Shown here in pieces: positions 9,326 to 37,262 of a stretch of DNA of 50,636 bases (positions are counted from its first letter, which is position 1; each line of letters starts with the position of its first letter). A program made the position numbers and the translations under genes. The stretch lies in the sequence record OR472545.1, one strand, 5' to 3'. The notes beneath the pieces were generated by a model. It searched no databases. It saw only the letters and a program-made list of their open reading frames with translations, and was not told where the DNA came from. The stretch comes from Escherichia phage vB_EcoM_50EP.

Positions 9326-10072
9326 ATGACACCTAAATTTGAAAACGTATTGCAGGGGCTATTCCCTGGTGAGATCATGACGCTAATCGACGTTGACGGC
9401 ACGAAGTTCGGAGCAGACGTCTACCGGTTCCACAATGAGAACATCCAGTTTACGCCGGAGGAGATTCTCGCAGCCACGCAGCCAGGCGGTAGCCTTCAGC
9501 CAAAAACAATCACCTTTCAGGGGAATGAATATGGCGCTCGTCCTTTCGGCATATCAGGCATTGACCTAAACGGTAACGGAAAGGCAGGAAAACCACAGTT
9601 AACCTTATCCAACCTTGACAGCAGAGTATCGGCCCTTATCCGGTCCTACAACGGCATGATGCAGGCCAAGGTGACTATCTGGATAACCTCACGCGAAATG
9701 CTAGGCAGCACAGGTAACGTTGCGGCTGGTGACTTCCGAAAATACGTTTACTACGTTGAACGACCGAACTTTGTGGATCAGAACCTTGCGCGATTCGACC
9801 TGACATCACCATACGATATGGATGGCATTATGATCCCGCCGCGAGTTACTCAGAGTGTTTGCTTTTGGGCGCAGCGTGGATGGTATCGGAGCGGACGCGG
9901 TTGCGGTTATAATGGAGGCCGGATGTTTGACAAAGACAACAATCCAGTAACTGATCCATCACAGGACGTATGCGCAGGAACGGTAACTGCCTGCAAATTA
10001 CGATTTGGCGACAAAAATGAATTAGATTTCGGCGGCTGCGCGGTCGCATCACTTGACAGGAAAAACCAATGA
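9326..10072 (+). CDS. minor tail protein (lambda gpL-like) with C-terminal Cys cluster
   Basis: 248 aa; C-terminal cysteines (CFWAQ...CGYNGG...CAGTVTAC...GGC) as in gpL Fe-S region. Confidence 0.6.
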   Translation: MTPKFENVLQGLFPGEIMTLIDVDGTKFGADVYRFHNENIQFTPEEILAATQPGGSLQPKTITFQGNEYGARPFGISGIDLNGNGKAGKPQLTLSNLDSRVSALIRSYNGMMQAKVTIWITSREMLGSTGNVAAGDFRKYVYYVERPNFVDQNLARFDLTSPYDMDGIMIPPRVTQSVCFWAQRGWYRSGRGCGYNGGRMFDKDNNPVTDPSQDVCAGTVTACKLRFGDKNELDFGGCAVASLDRKNQ

Positions 10073-14896: not shown

Positions 14897-15866
14897 AATA
14901 CATGTTTGGTATGTAAGGTAGCTGCATTGTGATGTTGGTGTTGAATGGGAACTGCGCGCCAGACTGCGTTGAGTAGTTACCATAAACACTTCCTTTATGT
15001 GCCCTAACCTGACCATTTGACATTGCAACGCCTTTGTATCGTAGGTTGTTGTACCCGCCAGTTACCTCAACCATTGCGCCGCATCTTAATATCGGGAAAA
15101 ACCCATTACCTATTGATTGGTATGAGTTAGACAGCTGAAGGAATCCGCTTAAGACAAAAGGCCTCTTCACGCTGGAAAACACTACCTGCCCAGCGGCGTT
15201 TGACATTGTTAAACCAGGTCCGGCGGTTGGTGCTGTATTGTTGAATATAACAAGATCGATAGTTACTGATGCTGAGACATTATCAATTCCTGTGTAGGTA
15301 TTGTTTCTACATAGTATTCTTGCCCCGTCAAACTCAAGGGTGACGTTTGGGTTATTCCACCTTCCGAATGGTATTCCAGTAACCGGAAGTGTATAGCTTC
15401 CATTAACCGTTACAGTTCCAACGTACTGAGCAGTAAGGAGCCTGCTGTTTGATGTTATGGCTGTGAAGTTTGTTGAGTCGCTAACGAATATACCCTCACT
15501 TCCAGGTGATGCGCCTAGAACCTCAAAGCCCTGCGCGCCAAATCCAATCAGGTGGCCTGGCGATCCGTTGAAGTTTCCTATACTTATCCTACCGGTTAAG
15601 TTATTAACCCTTGAGAATCCATTCATGAAATAAACCTCTGGTATGAAGTCGAAGTCATAAACGTCAACCGCCTTTGTGGGTAATATAAAGGCTGTAGAGC
15701 CTTGAGTCATTGTCAAGCTAAAGTCTCTAGCGCTGCTCGCAGAATCGAACGTAGAGCTGCTGCTAAGGCTACCCGTTACCGCCGGCGCCCTTAATCCAGC
15801 GGTTATCTCCATTCTTGGCCTTCCGTCATTAAGGTCTATTAAGATACCTTGAGGCATTATTTCCAC
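14895..15866 (-). CDS. hypothetical Gly/Ser/Thr/Asn-rich protein, possible receptor-binding/fibre accessory protein
   Basis: 323 aa, composition typical of fibre proteins; co-oriented and overlapping with upstream lipoprotein gene. Confidence 0.3.
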
Positions 15867-16087
15867 TCCTTTGTGCCGTGATCTTTAACTGATCCAGAGA
15901 AGTTCTTGATACCATCCCAGCGGATGTCAGTTTCACCTGAAGCTACAACCACACCGCCTTTCCATTTAGCAACACAAGAACCGTTAACTTCAGTCGCACA
16001 CCAGCCGTCAGGGCGCGGACCAGAAGAACATCCTACTGTCATGATTACTGCTGCTGCGATGATTGCTGATTTGATGAAGTTAGTCAT
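15857..16087 (-). CDS. lipoprotein, Cor-like superinfection exclusion candidate
   Basis: 76 aa; signal peptide with lipobox TVGC; located beside tail fibre genes as cor is in T1/phi80-like phages. Confidence 0.45.
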
Positions 16088-16127
16088 TTTCTAATCCTTA
16101 TTAAGCGTGTTTCGTTTCGATGGAGTA

Positions 16128-16171
16128 ACTATACATGCAACTAGCGCCCGAGTCTTTAGCTATTCGTGCTA
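16128..16171 (-). promoter_or_regulatory. TAGCAC-box promoter cassette (minus strand) upstream of lipoprotein gene
   Basis: rc reads TAGCACGAATAGCTAAAG ... TATAGT ... CATCGAAACGAAAC. Confidence 0.45.
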
Positions 16172-16225
16172 TTGTATACGCGTAACCGCTGTAACTCGGT
16201 GTATGCAATCTCGTCCGCGGAAAAT

Positions 16226-16340
16226 GATATACGCGCAGTTACGCCTAGTTACGCGATAGTTACATTAAAATATCTATATATATCAACCTTCTACTATAAT
16301 TATTATTATTATATATATTACTGTGTATATCGTGTAACCA
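16226..16340. repeat. AT-rich control-region core with AGTTACG iteron-like repeats and (ATT)n tract; homologous to 35789..35905
   Basis: three AGTTAC(G/A) repeats at about 10-bp phasing, TAAAATATC, ATTATTATTATTAT; about 100 bp alignable with second locus. Confidence 0.5.
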
Positions 16341-16604
16341 CTTCTATAGAGTATTCCGCTTATAAATTTCTAATATGTATATTCATACAGTATCTAATCA
16401 CGCATACACTAATGCACCATCCGCGAAAAGTGGTATACACGATATACACGCTGTTTACATCAAGCCATGGCTGGGCTGGACAGCCATTTTATGTAACTAA
16501 CGCCATTGCATACACGTGATTACAAATATCTACATGTAACCACTTGACTAACGCAACCAAGCGCGTATAGTTACCCACATCAACAACGAACGAGGATTAA
16601 AGAG

Positions 16605-17645
16605 ATGACTAAGCCACTGTTTCAATATTTCACTTCAGAAGAAATGAGCAACGATTTCTATCACAGCAAAAGTGAATGGACTGCTGAGTATGTGTCGGGT
16701 TCATCACTTAGTAAGATTCACAGCACTTGCCCTGCGGCGTGGAAGTTTGAAATGAACTCGACTACAAAGGCTCTTGTTTTCGGCACTCAGTCACACACCA
16801 ACTTTGAGAGCAAGGCGCTGTTTGAACGTCAGTATCGCCGAGCACCGAAAGAAAGCGAGATTGAAAACGTGATAACAAGCCAGGCGGCTTTGGCAACTAA
16901 GTTAAAATCATTTGGCCTGACTGGTACAAGCGGCAAGCAATATCCAGAGTTGATTAAAATGATGGTTGATTGTGGTGAAGACCTCAACGTCATGTGGCTG
17001 ATTGATATGATCGCACAGTGTCAGGCGCGGGCCGATGGCGTGGAACTTGTTAAGGCGGAAGACTACGACGCTTGCGTCAGTATGCGCCAGGTTCTTGAGA
17101 TGATTCCTGAACATAACGCCTGCATGAACAGTGAGACAGCATTTCGTGAGTATTCATTGTTCGGCGTAATTTGTGGCGTTAAAGTCAAGGTGCGACTTGA
17201 CCACGTTGACATTATTAAAGATCCAGAAGCAATCCGTCGCATGGGTTACGATCCTGACATTCATCCTGAAATTGTCGTCATCACTGATTACAAAACGACA
17301 ATGAGCGCTAACCCGACTGAGTTCCCGCGACTGGCATTCAATCATGGATACTATCTCAAGATGGCATTGCAGCGCGACTTGTTCGTTAAATGCTTTGAGG
17401 AAACAAGACCTGTGGTTGTTCGATTGCTGGCCCAGGAGAAGAAGGAGCCTTACTTGCCGATGGCGTACCGGATGAGTAGCGATCAGCTTAAGATTGGTCG
17501 TGCGCAGTACATGAGCGTGATACACACCTTCTCAATGTGCGAAGCCAACGACGTGTGGCCTTCATACAACAACGGAGAGCCGGAAATGGAGCTTGAGACG
17601 CCTGACTGGATCATGAAGCAGTTCAAGCATATCCTGGACGCATAG
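16605..17645 (+). CDS. PD-(D/E)XK recombination exonuclease (RecB/Cas4-like fold)
   Basis: RLDHVD ... ITDYKTT motif pattern; immediately upstream of ERF and SSB. Confidence 0.5.
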   Translation: MTKPLFQYFTSEEMSNDFYHSKSEWTAEYVSGSSLSKIHSTCPAAWKFEMNSTTKALVFGTQSHTNFESKALFERQYRRAPKESEIENVITSQAALATKLKSFGLTGTSGKQYPELIKMMVDCGEDLNVMWLIDMIAQCQARADGVELVKAEDYDACVSMRQVLEMIPEHNACMNSETAFREYSLFGVICGVKVKVRLDHVDIIKDPEAIRRMGYDPDIHPEIVVITDYKTTMSANPTEFPRLAFNHGYYLKMALQRDLFVKCFEETRPVVVRLLAQEKKEPYLPMAYRMSSDQLKIGRAQYMSVIHTFSMCEANDVWPSYNNGEPEMELETPDWIMKQFKHILDA

Positions 17646-17685
17646 CACTTTTTGCTAAACACGAACACGGTGATTTGCTATAATC
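17643..17685 (+). promoter_or_regulatory. TAGCAC-box promoter cassette
   Basis: TAGCACTTTTTGCTAAAC, 7-bp stem CGGTGAT/ATCACCG with TGCTATAAT in loop. Confidence 0.45.
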
Positions 17686-17721
17686 ACCGTAAATCAAACG
17701 AAGTAAACAAAGGTATATATA

Positions 17722-18378
17722 ATGCGTACATCAGAGAAGTTTTCGAATGTTTCAGCCGCTCTAATTGCAGCTAAAAAGCAGTTTGCCATAGCAAAAAAAT
17801 CAGGCTTTAACACTCACCTGAAAACCCATTACTCAAACTTAACGGACGTTTTGGAGGCCGTAGAGCCAGCGTTAAAAGAGCATGACCTTATGGTTATCCA
17901 GTCAAATCTGGACACGTCAACCGAAAAGGTAATGCACATTGAGACGCTCATCCTTCACAGTTCCGGCGAGTGGCTTGCGTTCCAGTACAACATGCCGATC
18001 GAGAAGATTAGCGCCCAGGCTTACGGATCAACAACTTCATACGGTCGCCGTTACGCATTATGCGCAGCGCTTGGAATCACTCAGAGCGATGACGACGCTG
18101 AAATCGCTAAGCGCACGGCAGCGGACTACAAAAAACTTATCACCAATTGTGAAAAGCTGGAAGACCTCCAGGTGATTTATAAGAGCGCTAAGGGTTCACT
18201 CGGAGCGGCGGAATGGAAGATTGCAGAGGACCACTTGCAGAAGCGCAAGGCTGAATTGAGTATTGGTAGCGCTCGCGGTTTCCAGCCAGCGAAAAAGGCA
18301 GATACGCAAAAGGTTGATGATAAGGTTGCCAATGCACCTTCCGAGCCTGTACAATCTGAATCCATCGAACAATTCTAA
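17722..18378 (+). CDS. erf: ERF-family single-strand annealing protein
   Basis: N-terminal region resembles ERF family; sits between exonuclease and SSB. Confidence 0.5.
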   Translation: MRTSEKFSNVSAALIAAKKQFAIAKKSGFNTHLKTHYSNLTDVLEAVEPALKEHDLMVIQSNLDTSTEKVMHIETLILHSSGEWLAFQYNMPIEKISAQAYGSTTSYGRRYALCAALGITQSDDDAEIAKRTAADYKKLITNCEKLEDLQVIYKSAKGSLGAAEWKIAEDHLQKRKAELSIGSARGFQPAKKADTQKVDDKVANAPSEPVQSESIEQF

Positions 18379-18416
18379 TTAACGGGGCTTCTGCCCCATC
18401 CAAAAAGGAAAATACA

Positions 18417-18875
18417 ATGCCACACGTAATCACTGGTCAGATCCGCAAAGCCCCATACACCAAAGAAGGCAGCAACAACAACGGTCGTTGGAAAATGTAC
18501 GCCGTTGAACTGTCAGAACGCATGAAGATTCGAAATCAAAATGGGGAGGATGAGACGGTTTACAGTAACTACCGCGCCACGTTCTTCGCAAAAGAAAACG
18601 TTATGCAGTGGTATGATGAAGCGTTCCAGGAAGGTAAGGTTGTATCAATTTCTGCCGACACGCTTCACCTGGCGTCACGCCAGGGTAATGACGGCACGGT
18701 GTATGTAACCGCCGAAATGATCCGGCCTCAGTTGCAATTCAGCCAGCGTGAACCAGCGCAGCATGGACAAGGTCAGCAACAACAACGCCAACAGGCTCAG
18801 CAACAGCAGCAACAACGCCAGCCTCAGCAGCAACCGAATCAATCAATGCAATTCGACGATGACATTCCTTTCTGA
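18417..18875 (+). CDS. ssb: single-stranded DNA-binding protein
   Basis: Gln-rich linker and canonical acidic C-terminal tip FDDDIPF. Confidence 0.75.
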   Translation: MPHVITGQIRKAPYTKEGSNNNGRWKMYAVELSERMKIRNQNGEDETVYSNYRATFFAKENVMQWYDEAFQEGKVVSISADTLHLASRQGNDGTVYVTAEMIRPQLQFSQREPAQHGQGQQQQRQQAQQQQQQRQPQQQPNQSMQFDDDIPF

Positions 18876-21326: not shown

Positions 21327-22268
21327 TTATGAATACTTATCTATCAGATCCTGCGGTGTATATAGCTTTCTCTCAAGTCCCATTTTGAAGTTTCCGCCGT
21401 TCGGCACTACAACTTTTAAATCACGTTCATCTGCCATGTAAAGCGTTCGCAAATCATCAGCCGGACACGCTACGCGCAACTCCCGATCGCCACGATAACG
21501 ATAAGCAACAATCTCAAGATTCTCAGGGGAGAAAGTCACCCACACTTCCTGACTGGTTGCTATCTTCACTCGGTATCCATCAACAAGGTCGCTTGTCATA
21601 TATATAGCTGCATCAGCCTCGCCACTACCCAGCTTAACCACTGATCCGCGAGAATAATCACGCGCAAGGAAAGTGTATTCGCCATTATCATAAGCAAACA
21701 TGACGTTACACATATCCTCATCAATTCCGTCGGGGTGGACCATGTAGCACGGCAGTGCGTGTATTAGCTCTTCAGTGCCATTCTGACGCACTTTTACGCC
21801 AACATCATATGAATCTTCGGTTAGGCACTCATACACGCTTAAATCAGTGCTCTCGCGCTTCTCTGTGCGCTCCATTACGGCTACACACGACTCATGATCC
21901 GCCATCTTGCCAAGCCCTTTCTCCGGTACGCGTGACGCCCTGCGGTAAGCCTTGGCTTTGTAATCCTGCGGAACCTTACCAAGGAATCGACCAAGGATGT
22001 TAATCACTTCACTGTAAGGCTCACCAGTCAGTTTCATCATCCAGCCGACGCCTTTATCGTTACCACATCCGTTACAGATCGCGCCGCCGTCACCAGGGGA
22101 ATCCAGTTCATCAGTCCACCGGAATCGGTCCTTGCCGCCGCAGTAAGGGCATGGCTGGTGCTTCTTATTGAACACGCCGGACTGCAAGCCACAAATGGAT
22201 TGTAACGCTTCACGCCATAATCCCTTCATATACGGCAGCACTTCTTCTTTCTGGAACATCTCGTTCAC
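21327..22268 (-). CDS. putative DNA primase (zinc-finger containing)
   Basis: CPYCGG...C..CG Cys cluster near N-terminus; location in replication module beside helicase. Confidence 0.45.
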   Translation of the reverse strand: MNEMFQKEEVLPYMKGLWREALQSICGLQSGVFNKKHQPCPYCGGKDRFRWTDELDSPGDGGAICNGCGNDKGVGWMMKLTGEPYSEVINILGRFLGKVPQDYKAKAYRRASRVPEKGLGKMADHESCVAVMERTEKRESTDLSVYECLTEDSYDVGVKVRQNGTEELIHALPCYMVHPDGIDEDMCNVMFAYDNGEYTFLARDYSRGSVVKLGSGEADAAIYMTSDLVDGYRVKIATSQEVWVTFSPENLEIVAYRYRGDRELRVACPADDLRTLYMADERDLKVVVPNGGNFKMGLERKLYTPQDLIDKYS

Positions 22269-22320: not shown

Positions 22321-22803
22321 TTATTCTTTAGCTTTCCGTGCTGCTTCGTTTGCTGCTTTAATTTTTCGCCATGAGCGACATTCAGGCTTAGTGGCTAGTT
22401 CAGCCTCGGTGACGACGCGCAGCATGTGACGCTTTTTGCAACGCAGCGTTAGCGGCTTGCCGTTCCCGTCGAATTGCAGATCAGGGCGGCAGAATGTAGC
22501 GCGGAACCCTTCGCCAGTTCGCTTATATCGGTTGTGCGCCAGTTGAGCGCCGCGCGCCGACATCATGCCGCGCTTAAACCATTCCTCAACTGCCTGTCGA
22601 GTAACTTTTAATTGCTTCGCCATGTTCGCCTTGCTGCCGTAGAACTCAAACACAATATCAAGTCGCGCTCTTAATCCGGCCTTTACTTCATCCTTGAGAA
22701 CATAGTAACCTGACGGTCGTTTGCGCTGCTTCTTATCTTCCGTGCGGATAGTTCCGTTGTTACCGTTAAGAGTACGCTTATCATTTGCATTCATTTTCAT
22801 CAC
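22321..22803 (-). CDS. basic HTH DNA-binding protein (candidate transcription regulator)
   Basis: segment KANMAKQLKVTRQAVEEWFKRG resembles helix-turn-helix; Lys/Arg-rich; divergent from helicase promoter. Confidence 0.4.
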   Translation of the reverse strand: MMKMNANDKRTLNGNNGTIRTEDKKQRKRPSGYYVLKDEVKAGLRARLDIVFEFYGSKANMAKQLKVTRQAVEEWFKRGMMSARGAQLAHNRYKRTGEGFRATFCRPDLQFDGNGKPLTLRCKKRHMLRVVTEAELATKPECRSWRKIKAANEAARKAKE

Positions 22804-30681: not shown

Positions 30682-32265
30682 TTACCCCAGCAGTCGCGGA
30701 TTAATGTAAATTTTATCACCAATCAGGCACGTATAGTTTTTCTCATCCAGCATAGGGATCAGATGGTCTTTGATGCGAGTCATTACACCAGCCTGGCCCT
30801 CGAATGGCTTAACCTTACGCGCCGCTTCATATAGGGATCGGACACCTACAACGCCTTTCCCGTTCTTGCCTTGCTTGATCAGGATGTCAATAAGCTTGTT
30901 CATCTCCGCATGGTCGCCAGCGTGACCAGCAGCGTTTGCAGATGACAGATAAGTTTTACTCAGTTCCTGGAACATAATTACAGCTTCTTGCATTGTATCA
31001 AGCTCAATCTCTCTGGACTTCTGCGGACTTCCGCCATTGGGATTAAACCAGTTACGCACAGTGTGAAGAACAGCCGCGATCCTGATAGCCTGCTTATCGA
31101 ACTTACCCAGCGCGCCGCGAAGCATTGTGTGTGAATACTTCCCGCCGTCCGCAAGGTGAGGTTCCATATCCTGACGCGCACGGTTGAGATATTTCATCGC
31201 CGACGTGCTCACTGTCAGGTTGACTTCGTGTTCGCTCATGATCTCATGGACCAGACGGAAGTAGTCCGCCTTGAGTCCTCCATCAATCGGCTCGTATGTT
31301 GATTCGCCTTTTTCGTCAACGAATACACGCTCGCCAAGGAATGACTTCTCACGCACAAGCAAGAAACGTTCTGACACACCGATACCACGCGCACCAGCAT
31401 TCATGATCGCGTTGATTGTTTCATCCTGTGCAATTACAGAGATGCAACCCATCGCAATAAAGCTCATGTTATTGTCTGCGTTCGCACGCGCGATAGATAC
31501 GTTACCAGCATCCCATGCTTTCAGCACAAGCTCGCTGTTCGTTTTCTTTGAGCCATCACCATAGGTCATGCCTAACAGTGAGTTTACGCTCGTCGCTTCA
31601 TCCGAGATCACAGAGAAGTTACCCTGGCGGTTGTTGATTCGCGCCAGACCTTCCGGCGTGGTGTCGGATACGGGGAATACGATGTCACAAAGGCGTTCCA
31701 GTTTTTCTTCCAGTTCTTCTTTTTCCTCAAACAGTGCCGCCATGTCGGACGGTGATTTTTCCTGCTTCATCTCCTTGGATAGAGCAGATAGTTTAGCCAT
31801 AATCTTCTTGCGGTCGCGCTTTCGGATCTCGTTGAGTCGTTCAGTCTCTGCGATCATCGGGGCCAGAGAAAGTGAGTTAATGGCTGATTTACCTGTCGAT
31901 GGTGGCTGACTGGTTACGACGTAAAGAGCGGTCGGCTGTTGTGTTCCGTGATACTCAACCGTAAATCGGCCCAGCATGGCGGCTGATATGCATCCGAGGA
32001 AATGCATGTAAGCGGACGACTCGGGGAACTGAACTGAACGAGCGGCATTGCTTGACAGCTTACCAACGACATCATAATCGTTACCAAGTGAGATAACCGG
32101 ATATTTGTCACCGCCTGAGTCAATTTCTGTTGGGGCTTTCCAGAATGATTGGCTCTGCCTGTATCCGTTCGCATTGATGGCAACGCGCAAAGGTGGCAGG
32201 TTATCGGCAGCGGCTACAGCCATTACCTGATCGATAGACAATTTATCTTCGTTAAAATCAAACAT
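30682..32265 (-). CDS. P-loop NTPase, unknown family (possible replication/primase-associated ATPase)
   Basis: Walker A-like PPSTGKS; 527 aa; N- and C-terminal ends shared with mini-paralog at 36693..37262. Confidence 0.5.
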   Translation of the reverse strand: MFDFNEDKLSIDQVMAVAAADNLPPLRVAINANGYRQSQSFWKAPTEIDSGGDKYPVISLGNDYDVVGKLSSNAARSVQFPESSAYMHFLGCISAAMLGRFTVEYHGTQQPTALYVVTSQPPSTGKSAINSLSLAPMIAETERLNEIRKRDRKKIMAKLSALSKEMKQEKSPSDMAALFEEKEELEEKLERLCDIVFPVSDTTPEGLARINNRQGNFSVISDEATSVNSLLGMTYGDGSKKTNSELVLKAWDAGNVSIARANADNNMSFIAMGCISVIAQDETINAIMNAGARGIGVSERFLLVREKSFLGERVFVDEKGESTYEPIDGGLKADYFRLVHEIMSEHEVNLTVSTSAMKYLNRARQDMEPHLADGGKYSHTMLRGALGKFDKQAIRIAAVLHTVRNWFNPNGGSPQKSREIELDTMQEAVIMFQELSKTYLSSANAAGHAGDHAEMNKLIDILIKQGKNGKGVVGVRSLYEAARKVKPFEGQAGVMTRIKDHLIPMLDEKNYTCLIGDKIYINPRLLG

Positions 32266-35552: not shown

Positions 35553-35665
35553 TGGATTGTTGCAGCTATTGCAATGATTAACTTCACTATTGCACATATA
35601 GCAATATTGCATCCTTTGCAATGACGTTTTCGATTGTTGCGAATTGAGCAATGATTCATTGATGG
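35553..35665. repeat. cluster of at least 7 TTGCA(A/T) / GCAATGATT direct and inverted repeats
   Basis: ATTGTTGCAGCTATTGCAATGATTAACTTCACTATTGCACATATAGCAATATTGCATCCTTTGCAATGACG...TTGCGAATTGAGCAATGATTC. Confidence 0.5.
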
Positions 35666-35788
35666 GGGGAATGATGGGGTGAGATCTGATCCCCTGATCG
35701 CCTGGTAGGATTTTCCCGCCACACGTTTCTAGCGCATACGCGTTATGCATGTTATGCTCTGTAGACAAATCCATCCGGCGTGGAATCA

Positions 35789-35905
35789 GGTACGCATATA
35801 ACGCCTATTTACGCTATGGTTACAATAAAATATCCTTATATAACAACCCTTTATCTATATTATTATTATTATTATATATATATGTAGATAATGTAGATAA
35901 GGGAT
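35789..35905. repeat. AT-rich control-region core with GGTTACA motifs and (ATT)n tract; homologous to 16226..16340
   Basis: TTTACGCTATGGTTACAATAAAATATCC...ATTATTATTATTATTATATATATAT alignable with first locus. Confidence 0.5.
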
Positions 35906-36174
35906 ACGAGATATTGCGATAGTTTTCTATGATACATTCTGACACTTGTAAGAATGGGATGACATTGTAGGAATAAAAAGGCATATATGGGGCAATCCTC
36001 CGCGAAATTTGATGTACAAGCTGTACACAGTGGTTACATTGAGCTATATCTGGCCCGAGAGGTCGCAAAACGTAACTAAGTCGAACATTTGCATCAATAA
36101 CACTTGATAACATGTAACCACGCTGGTAATATTGCACCCATCTTAACGAAGACCACCAATCAGGAGTAACATCT

Positions 36175-36696
36175 ATGTCAAATCATAATCAACCCGTAAG
36201 CCTGGGCGATGTCGTCCGCTACATGGCGGAGCAGGCGCTCAAGTCCGAGAACCGCAGCTACCACGTTCCAATCCACCTGATAGCTCGCCAGATGTACGGC
36301 CTCACGGCTGATGATATGGGCAGAATCAATGCCGACGACCTTGAGGCTGGCGGTAAGTACAGCGTTGCAAAGCTGAAAGCCTCGTACGTCTCTAACACGG
36401 TTGCCAGGATGCCAGAGATTCAGGCGGCGAACGTTCGGGCCAAGCTGTCAATCAAGGATGGCGACTTCGGGGATGATGTAGATGTTCGATGTGCTTACAT
36501 CACCCTGGTTGATGGTGCGATCCAGACCGGAACACGACACAAGGGTGACGCGGAAAAGGAGGCGGTCATCGTTGAAAGGTTCAAGTCTCGGTTGCTCAAG
36601 ATCACACCGAACGTCATCGACCTGCAAGGTGAGCAGAAAGAAGGTGCGCTCATTGCCCTGGCTCGCTACCATGAAATGATCAAGGATACTAAATGA
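36175..36696 (+). CDS. hypothetical early protein
   Basis: 173-aa ORF, first gene after AT-rich region, RBS AGGAG. Confidence 0.45.
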   Translation: MSNHNQPVSLGDVVRYMAEQALKSENRSYHVPIHLIARQMYGLTADDMGRINADDLEAGGKYSVAKLKASYVSNTVARMPEIQAANVRAKLSIKDGDFGDDVDVRCAYITLVDGAIQTGTRHKGDAEKEAVIVERFKSRLLKITPNVIDLQGEQKEGALIALARYHEMIKDTK

Positions 36697-37262
36697 TGAG
36701 CATGTTTGATTTCAGTGAAGATAAACTAACAGATGAGCAGGTGATTGAAGTTGCCATGATTGATGGTCTACTTCCGCTGCGAGTTGCGATCAGTCATAAC
36801 GGATACCGACAGTCGTTCAAATACTGGTGCAGCGCGGAAGAGATGCTTCGTGTCAAGCTCGACAGAAAGCTCGCCGTCGTCACCCATAAGATACACGACC
36901 AGGCGAAAAGAGGTAAGGGAGTTGTAGGCATTCGATCAACATACGAGGCGATCAGGAAGTTGCATCCTTTCGTCGGGCGCAATGGTGTCATGAATGACCT
37001 GAATGATAACATTCTGCCAGCGCTCCAGGGCGCCGGAATAATTTGCGTTATTGGTGACAAGATATATGCTCACCCTGCATTGGTTGGTATGGATGGTCGC
37101 GACGTCTATAAGTGGTGCAACGCCTGGCGCGCTGTGGAGCGCCGCAAATCTCAGAGCAAATTGCAGTCCAGCTCAGATCTGATTCATGGCTATGATGCAG
37201 ATGAGGTCAGAAAGGCCATCCAGTTCTACCGGAAAGCGAAATCTCTCCTGAACGGTGAATAG
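36693..37262 (+). CDS. mini-paralog of the P-loop ATPase (N- and C-terminal segments only, ATPase core absent)
   Basis: MFDFSEDKLTDEQV...LPLRVAI..NGYRQS and KRGKGVVGIRSTYEA...GDKIYAHPALVG align to the ends of the 30682..32265 product. Confidence 0.45.
   Translation: MMSMFDFSEDKLTDEQVIEVAMIDGLLPLRVAISHNGYRQSFKYWCSAEEMLRVKLDRKLAVVTHKIHDQAKRGKGVVGIRSTYEAIRKLHPFVGRNGVMNDLNDNILPALQGAGIICVIGDKIYAHPALVGMDGRDVYKWCNAWRAVERRKSQSKLQSSSDLIHGYDADEVRKAIQFYRKAKSLLNGE

Follow-up and report, generated by a model that had tools for sequence, protein, structure and literature searches.

A conserved non-coding element of phased repeats and an unstable AT tract, present in two copies in the T1-like coliphage vB_EcoM_50EP, as a candidate replication origin

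The non-coding interval at positions 16088-16604 in the genome of Escherichia phage vB_EcoM_50EP (OR472545.1) contains an element, designated R1, that is best explained as a cis-acting site recognised by a protein with sequence-specific binding to DNA, and most likely as one of two paralogous replication origins. Its paralogue, R2, is located about 19.5 kb away. The window analysed was the complete record of 50,636 nucleotides, which is the complete genome of a T1-like coliphage (Drexlerviridae, Nouzillyvirus); its nearest records are the Nouzillyvirus phages TH21, CJ19, GaoY1-9D and ETEP102. By analogy with characterised systems, the balance is slightly in favour of R1 being a replication origin or at least an element to which an initiator binds. 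T1 belongs to the classical set of seven T phages and is notorious for contaminating laboratories. For T1-like phages the origin is reported as unidentified (PMC11447400, PMC7718038), and no mapped origin or start-site data for a T1-like phage were found in the literature searched.

Results

Anatomy of element R1

In a preliminary description of the interval, three AGTTAC(G/A) repeats at a spacing of about 10 bp, an (ATT)n tract and at least eight GTTAC/GTAAC cores, against about one expected by chance, had been noted. All three features were recovered. AGTTACG is present at 16237 and 16247 and AGTTACA at 16258, with spacings of 10 and 11 bp, and an (ATT)4 run, ATTATTATTATTAT, lies inside the AT tract at 16299-16312. 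The cores numbered ten (16125, 16182, 16191, 16238, 16248, 16259, 16334, 16493, 16536 and 16570), while about 1.1 were expected in 517 bp from the local composition and 1.3 from the genome-wide rate. The interval is the densest 517-bp stretch of the genome for this motif, and the region of R2 ranks second with five. Two of the ten cores (16125 and 16570) lie outside the arrays and belong to TATAGTTAC, a -10 context that is shared by both flanking promoters and is common to the promoters of this phage.

The three repeats noted earlier are part of phased arrays and make up only three of at least 14 copies of a repeat unit. This unit is a 7-bp word, KWTACRY, with the core TTAC/GTAA (GTTACGC, GTTACAT, TATACGC, TATACAC, TTTACAT). 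The core of R1 contains at least 14 copies against 0.77 expected, arranged with periods of 9 to 11 bp, but the word was derived from R1 itself, so that the p-value is inflated and the enrichment is a description and not a test. An assumption-free k-mer enrichment picked GTTACA/TGTAAC, which occurs eight times in the cores of the two elements and 18 times in the other 49.8 kb of the genome. The words are grouped in four arrays and a distal set, and each of the two related boxes TCCGCGGAAAATGA and TCCGCGAAAAGTGG stands directly before an array (Table 1). Across the AT tract the words on the left and on the right have opposite orientation, and the same was found in the R1 and R2 counterparts of T1 and in phiEB49.

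Table 1. Positions of the features of the vB_EcoM_50EP genome that are discussed in the text
Feature	Position	Strand	Description
R1, candidate origin	16177-16540	.	Conserved non-coding element, about 365 bp; left edge a mosaic junction, right edge abuts the exonuclease promoter
Array C	16180-16205	+	GCGTAAC, CTGTAAC, GTGTATG (relatives: ATGTAAC, ATGTATA); 3 words, period 9-10 bp
Box TCCGCGGAAAATGA	16214-16227	.	Repeat family, 82% over 22 nt; conserved in the 19-phage alignment
Array A	16228-16265	-	TATACGC, GTTACGC, GTTACGC, GTTACAT at 16228, 16238, 16248, 16259; period 10-11 bp; contains the three AGTTAC(G/A) repeats; abuts the AT tract
AT tract, candidate DNA unwinding element	16264-16322	.	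88% A+T over 60 bp
Array D	16323-16338	+	GTGTATA, GTGTAAC; period 9 bp; orientation of array C, opposite to array A across the AT tract
Second box copy, TCCGCGAAAAGTGG	16420-16433	.	Precedes array B
Array B	16434-16460	-	TATACAC, TATACAC, TTTACAT; period 9-11 bp; orientation of array A
Distal words	16491-16540	.	ATGTAAC 16491, ATTACAA 16519, ATGTAAC 16534; 4 bp between the end of the last word and the -35 hexamer of the exonuclease promoter
Predicted sigma-70-type promoter of the exoVIII-erf-ssb operon	16544-16571	+	TTGACT-16-TATAGT; 10 of 12 consensus matches
Predicted promoter of the lipoprotein gene	16128-16171	-	-10 TATAGT is the reverse complement of 16128-16133; palindrome copy at 16157-16171
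Lipoprotein gene	15857-16087	-	76 aa; left flank of 16088-16604
Exonuclease VIII gene	16605-17645	+	Right flank of 16088-16604
R2, paralogue of R1	35740-36135	.	AT tract 35815-35900; TTTACGC and GTTACAA on the left, tandem TGTAGATAA (two copies) on the right
R2 promoter	36104-36132		TTGATA-17-TAATAT; ATGTAAC word within the spacer
MCM-like (DUF3987) helicase gene, candidate initiator	30682-32265	-	Terminal winged-helix domain; Pfam DUF3987 E 5.6e-39
Gene of helicase paralogue, candidate word-binding regulator	36693-37262	+	189 aa; second gene right of R2
Primase gene	21327-22268		Separate primase, 313 aa
Cro-like helix-turn-helix regulator gene	22321-22803
Palindrome TAGC(T/A)-N5-TGCTA	17643, 22809, 25400, 26702, 37260, 38521, 43631, 44260		Examples
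Palindrome, minus-strand copies	16157, 32965, 35054, 35525	-	Examples

Duplex stability of the AT tracts

Duplex stability was calculated from nearest-neighbour energies in windows of 40 to 100 bp. At every window size, the two least stable segments of the genome were located at about 16256-16340 and at 35815-35900, i.e., at the AT tracts of R1 and R2. Both tracts deviate from the genome mean by about 5 standard deviations, and there is a large gap to the segment in third place. The two equivalent sites of T1 were the two least stable 80-mers of the T1 genome (z 6.3 and 5.5, next 3.4), and the two equivalent sites of phage CJ19 were likewise the two least stable 80-mers of that genome.

Sequences resembling the sites of host proteins were also seen in these tracts. 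At 16281-16293 the AT tract of R1 has a sequence like the core site of integration host factor (IHF) with one mismatch (CTA). Most relatives have a perfect core, TATCAACCTTTTA, which fits WATCAANNNNTTR and follows an A/T run inside the AT tract; T1 is without the core. At the right edge of both tracts, 9-mers similar to a DnaA box are found on the minus strand, ATATACACA in R1 (16322-16330) and the tandem TTATCTACA TTATCTACA in R2 (35883-35900), the latter breaking the conserved C of the box. The 9-mer of R1, which is the reverse complement of 16322-16330, is one mismatch away from the DnaA box R2 of oriC, TTATACACA.

Conservation among related phages

The core of the element, 16170-16560, matched 134 phage records with identities of 76-95%. 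The records come from several genera and include Nouzillyvirus, Rtp, DTL, IME542, Veterinaerplatzvirus and the BASEL phages JeanPiccard and AugustePiccard. In phiEB49, C119, Sd1, AHS24 and ACG-M12, matches to the left half of the element were obtained as well. Seven IMG/VR contigs contain an exact match to a 30-mer taken where array A joins the AT tract, and no plasmid homologues of the element were found in PLSDB. In all records inspected the element is non-coding, except for short, non-conserved open reading frames called by some depositors. It is located upstream of the exonuclease VIII module, from which it is usually separated by one to three small genes. The left neighbour varies and may be a gene for a lipoprotein, a Dcm methyltransferase, a Roi-like DNA-binding protein or a Rha antirepressor. 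An alignment of 19 phages showed a sharp onset of conservation at TACrCGTAACC (16177), with at least two unrelated left flanks. Judged from this alignment, position 16177 is a mosaic junction, and the edge of the element appears to be a recombination boundary for the exchange of morons.

In the same alignment, the mean conservation was 94% for the columns of the words (67% invariant), 98% for those of the AT tract (86% invariant) and 82% for all other columns (31% invariant). A permutation test on these classes of columns gave p < 2e-4. The words remained nearly unchanged among the relatives while the spacers drifted; from TATACACGATATACAC of array B, only one or two of the 19 phages deviated. 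By this pattern of substitution, the repeats are to be regarded as phylogenetic footprints.

R1 is barely alignable with T1 and gave no BLAST alignment with it; the same architecture is present at both T1 sites. Seven of the 24 TGTAAC sites in the T1 genome are located within the 527-bp cor-exo spacer, a count that does not depend on the word definition derived from R1. The heptamer TGTAACA occurs six times in the two elements of T1 and nowhere else in its genome. The block AAATTTCTAATATGTATATTCATACAG at 16364-16388 is one of the few islands that can be aligned with T1 (AAATTTCTATCATGTATGTTCAAAAT).

Alternatively, the region could encode a structured non-coding RNA or, in a 117-codon open frame at 16166-16519, a small protein. 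The alifold energy was indeed below that of column-shuffled alignments (z -7 to -8.6), 12 of the 19 relatives retain a frame of about 100 codons without a stop, and a terminator-like hairpin is present at 16467-16487. However, a compensatory change was found in only two of the 84 predicted pairs, with a covariation term of -2.2 kcal/mol, and the predicted helices only join invariant words of opposite orientation. Searches of Rfam 15 gave no match, neither for the whole genome at the gathering score nor for 16000-16700 at E <= 1. The open frame is broken by 1-nt indels in 7 of the 19 phages and has no 3-base periodicity of substitutions (0.122, 0.112 and 0.120). Neither the stem nor the T-run of the hairpin is conserved, and the T-run is replaced by an A-run in Braunvirinae. 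In three long-range inverted repeats (16190-16214/16500-16524, 16253-16269/16487-16503 and 16323-16336/16436-16449), one arm changes in relatives without compensation; these repeats are a by-product of the opposed arrays. An RNA or a peptide as the product of this region is extremely improbable.

The paralogous element R2

The similarity between R1 and a second region, previously noted over about 100 bp, is real but more extensive, as the colinearity of R1 with R2 extends over about 390 bp (16175-16560 and 35745-36135). The best block comprises 72 nt with 81% identity (16241-16312 and 35801-35872). R2 contains five copies of KWTACRY, compared to 14 in R1. At the level of BLAST, full-length copies of the R2 type were present in Nouzillyvirus only, and R1 is the more widely conserved of the two elements in sequence. 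The second element of T1 is architecturally equivalent to R2 and spans the ends of the T1 record.

To the left of R2, at 35555-35700, repeats of the type ATTGCA/TTGCAAT/AGCAAT are densely clustered, and a G-rich block as well as three GATC sites that lie within 17 bp (35683, 35688 and 35696) were observed; all of these are conserved in Nouzillyvirus. The T1 sequence in GenBank begins within the corresponding cluster of repeats, and the starts of several related records are close by. Because these records start in or near the cluster, 35555-35700 may be the pac region.

The presence of two elements raises an alternative in which an initiator binds to R1 without firing it, and in which R2 is the true origin. 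R1 would then act as a fork barrier or a switch of the replication mode, as has been proposed for oriR of phage SPP1, or as a replication enhancer similar to crr of P4. It has been proposed that SPP1 gp38 stalls forks at oriR and thereby triggers recombination-dependent synthesis of concatemers by exonuclease, annealase and single-strand DNA-binding protein (SSB) (PMC6316719), and R1 lies directly in front of exo-erf-ssb. Moreover, it is R2 and not R1 that adjoins the operon with the genes for the helicase and its truncated paralogue. On the other hand, the words of R1 are more numerous and better conserved than those of R2, its AT tract is equally unstable, and R1 has the wider distribution of the two. 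We therefore consider a non-firing R1 unlikely.

Candidate proteins for recognition of the words

The candidate for the initiator is the MCM-like helicase of the DUF3987 family, whose gene is located about 15 kb from R1 and about 3.2 kb from R2. An AlphaFold2 model of this protein (pLDDT 89) had Mcm2-7 subunits and archaeal MCM as best matches. The DUF3987 family has been described as superfamily 6 (SF6) helicases whose C-terminus forms a winged helix-turn-helix domain (PMC4889955). The 189-aa paralogue consists of the N-terminal 48 aa and the C-terminal 63 aa of the helicase (58% and 54% identity, respectively), and the whole ATPase core is missing. Its winged-helix fold is closest to domains of ORC2, ORC1 and Cdc6, and the protein is widespread in Drexlerviridae; it may be a regulator that binds to the words.

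Analogous regions of words and AT tracts were found in two distant phages, L027 and L028, which are metagenomic or read-archive assemblies and whose DUF3987 helicases are 35-39% identical to that of vB_EcoM_50EP. In each of them, a stretch of 560-620 bp immediately upstream of the helicase operon is non-coding (9203-9759 in L027, 9060-9680 in L028). This operon contains genes for the helicase, a primase (L027 only), an SNF2-type helicase and a DUF3799 protein, and in L028 an SSB gene follows further downstream. The region of L027 contains 10 of the 21 CTTACA/TGTAAG sites of the locus, with the same TTACA core as in R1, an AT-rich or low-complexity tract, and a (CAA)14-like run at about 9393-9425. 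In L028, seven of the nine GGGGGT (ACCCCC) sites are located in the region, in both orientations and around TATATA tracts. A small gene upstream of the L027 helicase gene was considered as a truncated paralogue and rejected, as there was no similarity. On the basis of these loci, the architecture of words plus AT tract travels with the DUF3987 helicase family, and the word itself can change. In T1-like phages the helicase module appears to be split in two, and each part is presumably headed by one copy of the element.

These loci also bear on the reading of the words as sites of host proteins, namely of OmpR/CpxR-type response regulators together with DnaA and IHF, in a host-dependent architectural or regulatory element. 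OmpR/CpxR-type regulators read tandem GTTACA or GTAAA repeats with a period of 10 bp, and TTTACGCATTGGTTACAT of the relatives resembles the OmpR F1 site TTTACTTTTGGTTACATATT. This apparent resemblance to a consensus site and that to the DnaA box would speak for host factors, as would the IHF core in most relatives. However, the DnaA-like word loses the conserved C in R2, and the IHF core is absent from T1 and imperfect in this genome. In addition, the word tracks the phages with a DUF3987 helicase and becomes CTTACA or GGGGGT in the distant ones, which points to a phage-encoded reader. Host proteins as principal readers are very unlikely; they could still be accessory.

Flanking genes and promoters

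R1 is located between the tail/moron block and the genes for exonuclease VIII, Erf and SSB, which follow one another on the plus strand at 16605-18875. The location and the non-coding nature of the interval agree with the preliminary description, in which the lipoprotein on its left was called Cor-like. As the 76-aa protein occupies the position of cor in T1 and shares with T1 Cor a signal peptide and a lipobox only, this label is, by sequence, merely positional. Few promoters in the genome score as well as the one at the right end of R1, which is conserved in the Nouzillyvirus relatives and has the counterpart TTGACT-17-TATAAT in T1. The leftward promoter of the lipoprotein gene takes up the left 90 bp of the interval and is outside the conserved element. 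Cumulative GC skew was considered as an indicator of the origin, but it tracks gene orientation and was uninformative.

The palindrome of the leftward promoter, TAGC(T/A)-N5-TGCTA (TAGCA-N5-TGCTA), occurs in 20 copies in the genome and is always co-oriented with transcription. It is located 22-23 nt upstream of a TATAnT hexamer and is followed by a shared leader (..CATCGAAACGAA..). It corresponds to the 21-nt direct repeat of phages TLS and T1, aaATAGCACnnnTTGnTAAAA (PMC11447400). With its centre near -41.5, the palindrome has the geometry of a class-II-activator-dependent promoter, which may answer the question on the TLS repeats left open in PMC11447400. One copy, that upstream of the lipoprotein gene, lies within 16088-16604. 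The repeats differ from the words of R1 in motif and distribution and do not belong to the conserved element at 16177-16540.

The promoters at the right ends of R1 and R2 suggest a further explanation, i.e., a control region of early transcription without origin function. The words would then be operators for a phage regulator such as the Cro-like helix-turn-helix protein or the 189-aa protein, which would switch on or off two sigma-70 early promoters, that of exo-erf-ssb and that of the rightward early operon at R2, and the AT tract would be an UP element, a bending element or a region of divergent promoters. A near-consensus sigma-70 promoter, of which the genome has only a few, stands at the end of each element. 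In R1 a word precedes the -35 hexamer by 4 bp, and in R2 a word is located in the spacer of the promoter. Weak promoter-like hexamer pairs are present on the minus strand of the AT tract, and the depositors of ETEP102 annotated predicted promoters there. Most of the words, however, are found at 100-370 bp upstream of the promoter, and the distance of the AT tract, about 250 bp, is too great for an UP element. The promoter-like matches are no commoner than in shuffled sequences (3 found, 3.5 expected), and Braunvirinae and phiEB49 keep the element although the downstream promoter and gene differ. The operator explanation accounts neither for the least stable tract in three divergent genomes nor for the analogous regions beside the DUF3987 helicase operons. 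A purely transcriptional role is less likely than an origin, to which it is the main rival. Origin and operator functions could be combined, as autoregulation through iterons is frequent among initiators.

Discussion

The preliminary description had suggested a replication origin or clustered regulator sites, and had taken a lack of conservation of the repeats in related phages as grounds against this. Conservation was clearly found, in 134 records by sequence and in T1 by architecture. The proposed class of element is supported by the footprints, by the exceptionally unstable tract and by the failure of the coding and RNA explanations, but a comparison of sequences does not separate an origin from an operator array. 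The best reading of R1, to which we incline by a small degree, is a SaPI-type origin (SaPI, Staphylococcus aureus pathogenicity island) with iterons around a DNA unwinding element, the two elements being paired like oriL and oriR of SPP1. An origin is favoured because phased words on both sides of an AT region, their opposite orientation and a winged-helix helicase constitute the anatomy of SaPI origins.

Taken from this analogy, the sequence of binding, melting and replication start would be as follows. The winged-helix module of the DUF3987 helicase, or else the 189-aa paralogue of the helicase, would bind the words on either side of the AT tract. Binding at both flanks would distort and melt the AT tract in between, and the adjacent strong sigma-70 promoter may help in the opening. 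Two helicase rings would then load themselves at the melted tract, and the phage primase and subsequently the host replisome would follow. Through the word beside the promoter, the same protein would be able to control the early transcription of exo-erf-ssb. A more specific version, which is put forward as tentative and has less than an even chance, is that R1 and R2 are the T1-like origins fired by a self-loading MCM-like helicase at iterons with a TTAC core. In this version the 189-aa protein competes for the sites or marks them in advance, and thereby controls the choice of origin or the switch from origin-dependent to recombination-dependent replication (exo-erf-ssb).

Several points weigh against an origin function as described here. 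The enrichment figure rests on a word taken from R1 itself. To the right of the AT tract the words of R2 partly differ from those of R1 (two copies of TGTAGATAA), so that one protein may not read both elements. The helicase gene is not adjacent to R1, in contrast to the SaPI origin, which is located beside rep. The winged-helix fold is generic, and the Cro-like regulator could be the binding protein. The words beside or inside two early promoters would be explained just as well by transcriptional control alone. Finally, older genetic work on T1 reportedly points to a need for host elongation functions and is not known to address the position of the origin.

The kind of element is known, while its presence in T1-like phages is undescribed in the literature searched. 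The analysis provides two precise candidate sites of about 365 bp, which are present in every member of the family examined, together with a candidate initiator and a candidate regulator. If the origin reading is true, initiation by a self-loading helicase at iterons with an AT core would be extended from satellites of staphylococci to a large family of virulent phages of enterobacteria, and a tractable E. coli system for the loading of MCM-type helicases would be available. The element could also serve phage engineering, for example in phage-dependent replicons or for attenuation by mutation of the origin, and could aid the reading of sequencing-coverage profiles of Drexlerviridae.

Comparison with known origins

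A lambda-type origin, with tandem iterons of 18-19 bp within a gene for an O-like initiator, was rejected, as R1 is non-coding; the authors of the TLS study also found no lambda-type iteron repeats in T1-like genomes (PMC11447400). An oriC-type origin depending on DnaA, with clusters of TTATNCACA and GATC, was rejected as well, since R1 has one 9-mer within one mismatch (reverse complement of 16322-16330) and no GATC. The genome has 231 GATC sites, and about 2.4 would be expected in the 517 bp of 16088-16604; this absence alone is not significant.

Satellite phage P4 has two separated cis regions, ori and crr, which contain the same octamer iteron and to which the alpha primase-helicase binds by its winged-helix C-terminus. 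Alpha is a superfamily 3 (SF3) primase-helicase fusion and crr an enhancer, not a start site, whereas the primase of the T1-like phage is a separate protein of 313 aa.

The Bacillus phage SPP1 is a virulent, pac-packaging siphovirus with two similar origins, oriL and oriR, which consist of direct repeats together with an AT-rich unwinding element and are kilobases apart; one of them is intergenic among late/moron genes, and there is a link to a module of exonuclease, annealase and SSB (PMC6316719). R1 and R2 are likewise two similarly organised elements in one genome, and so are the two elements of T1. SPP1 differs in its use of gp38, a protein dedicated to origin binding, with a loader and a helicase of the DnaB type, and in that oriL lies inside gene 38, whereas the helicase here is MCM-like. 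No gp38-like gene turned up in this genome, in which no search aimed at gp38 homologues was made.

In SaPIs, self-loading Rep helicases bind to the origin by a C-terminal winged helix, and opposite orientation of the words is a conserved feature (PMC9371898). The origins of SaPIs and other phage-inducible chromosomal islands (PICIs) comprise from 6 to more than 12 words of five to seven bp, which flank a central AT-rich region with at least two words per side in opposed orientation (PMC9371898). The initiator is an AAA+ helicase, MCM-related or of the SF3 clade, that reads the words by its C-terminal winged helix, and the primase is separate or fused (PMC9371898). A sequence similarity of SaPI Rep to the phage helicase was not detected, and SaPI Rep was not among the best 50 fold matches listed. 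The SaPI origin follows immediately downstream of rep; neither R1 nor R2 is adjacent to the helicase gene in this way, but the regions of L027 and L028 are. A further difference is the presence of two elements per T1-like genome. The arrays of R1, their orientation and the AT tract correspond to the SaPI plan, with the four words of array A on the left and the two words of array D, in opposed orientation, on the right, and the phage has an MCM-like winged-helix helicase, which may read the words, and a separate primase.

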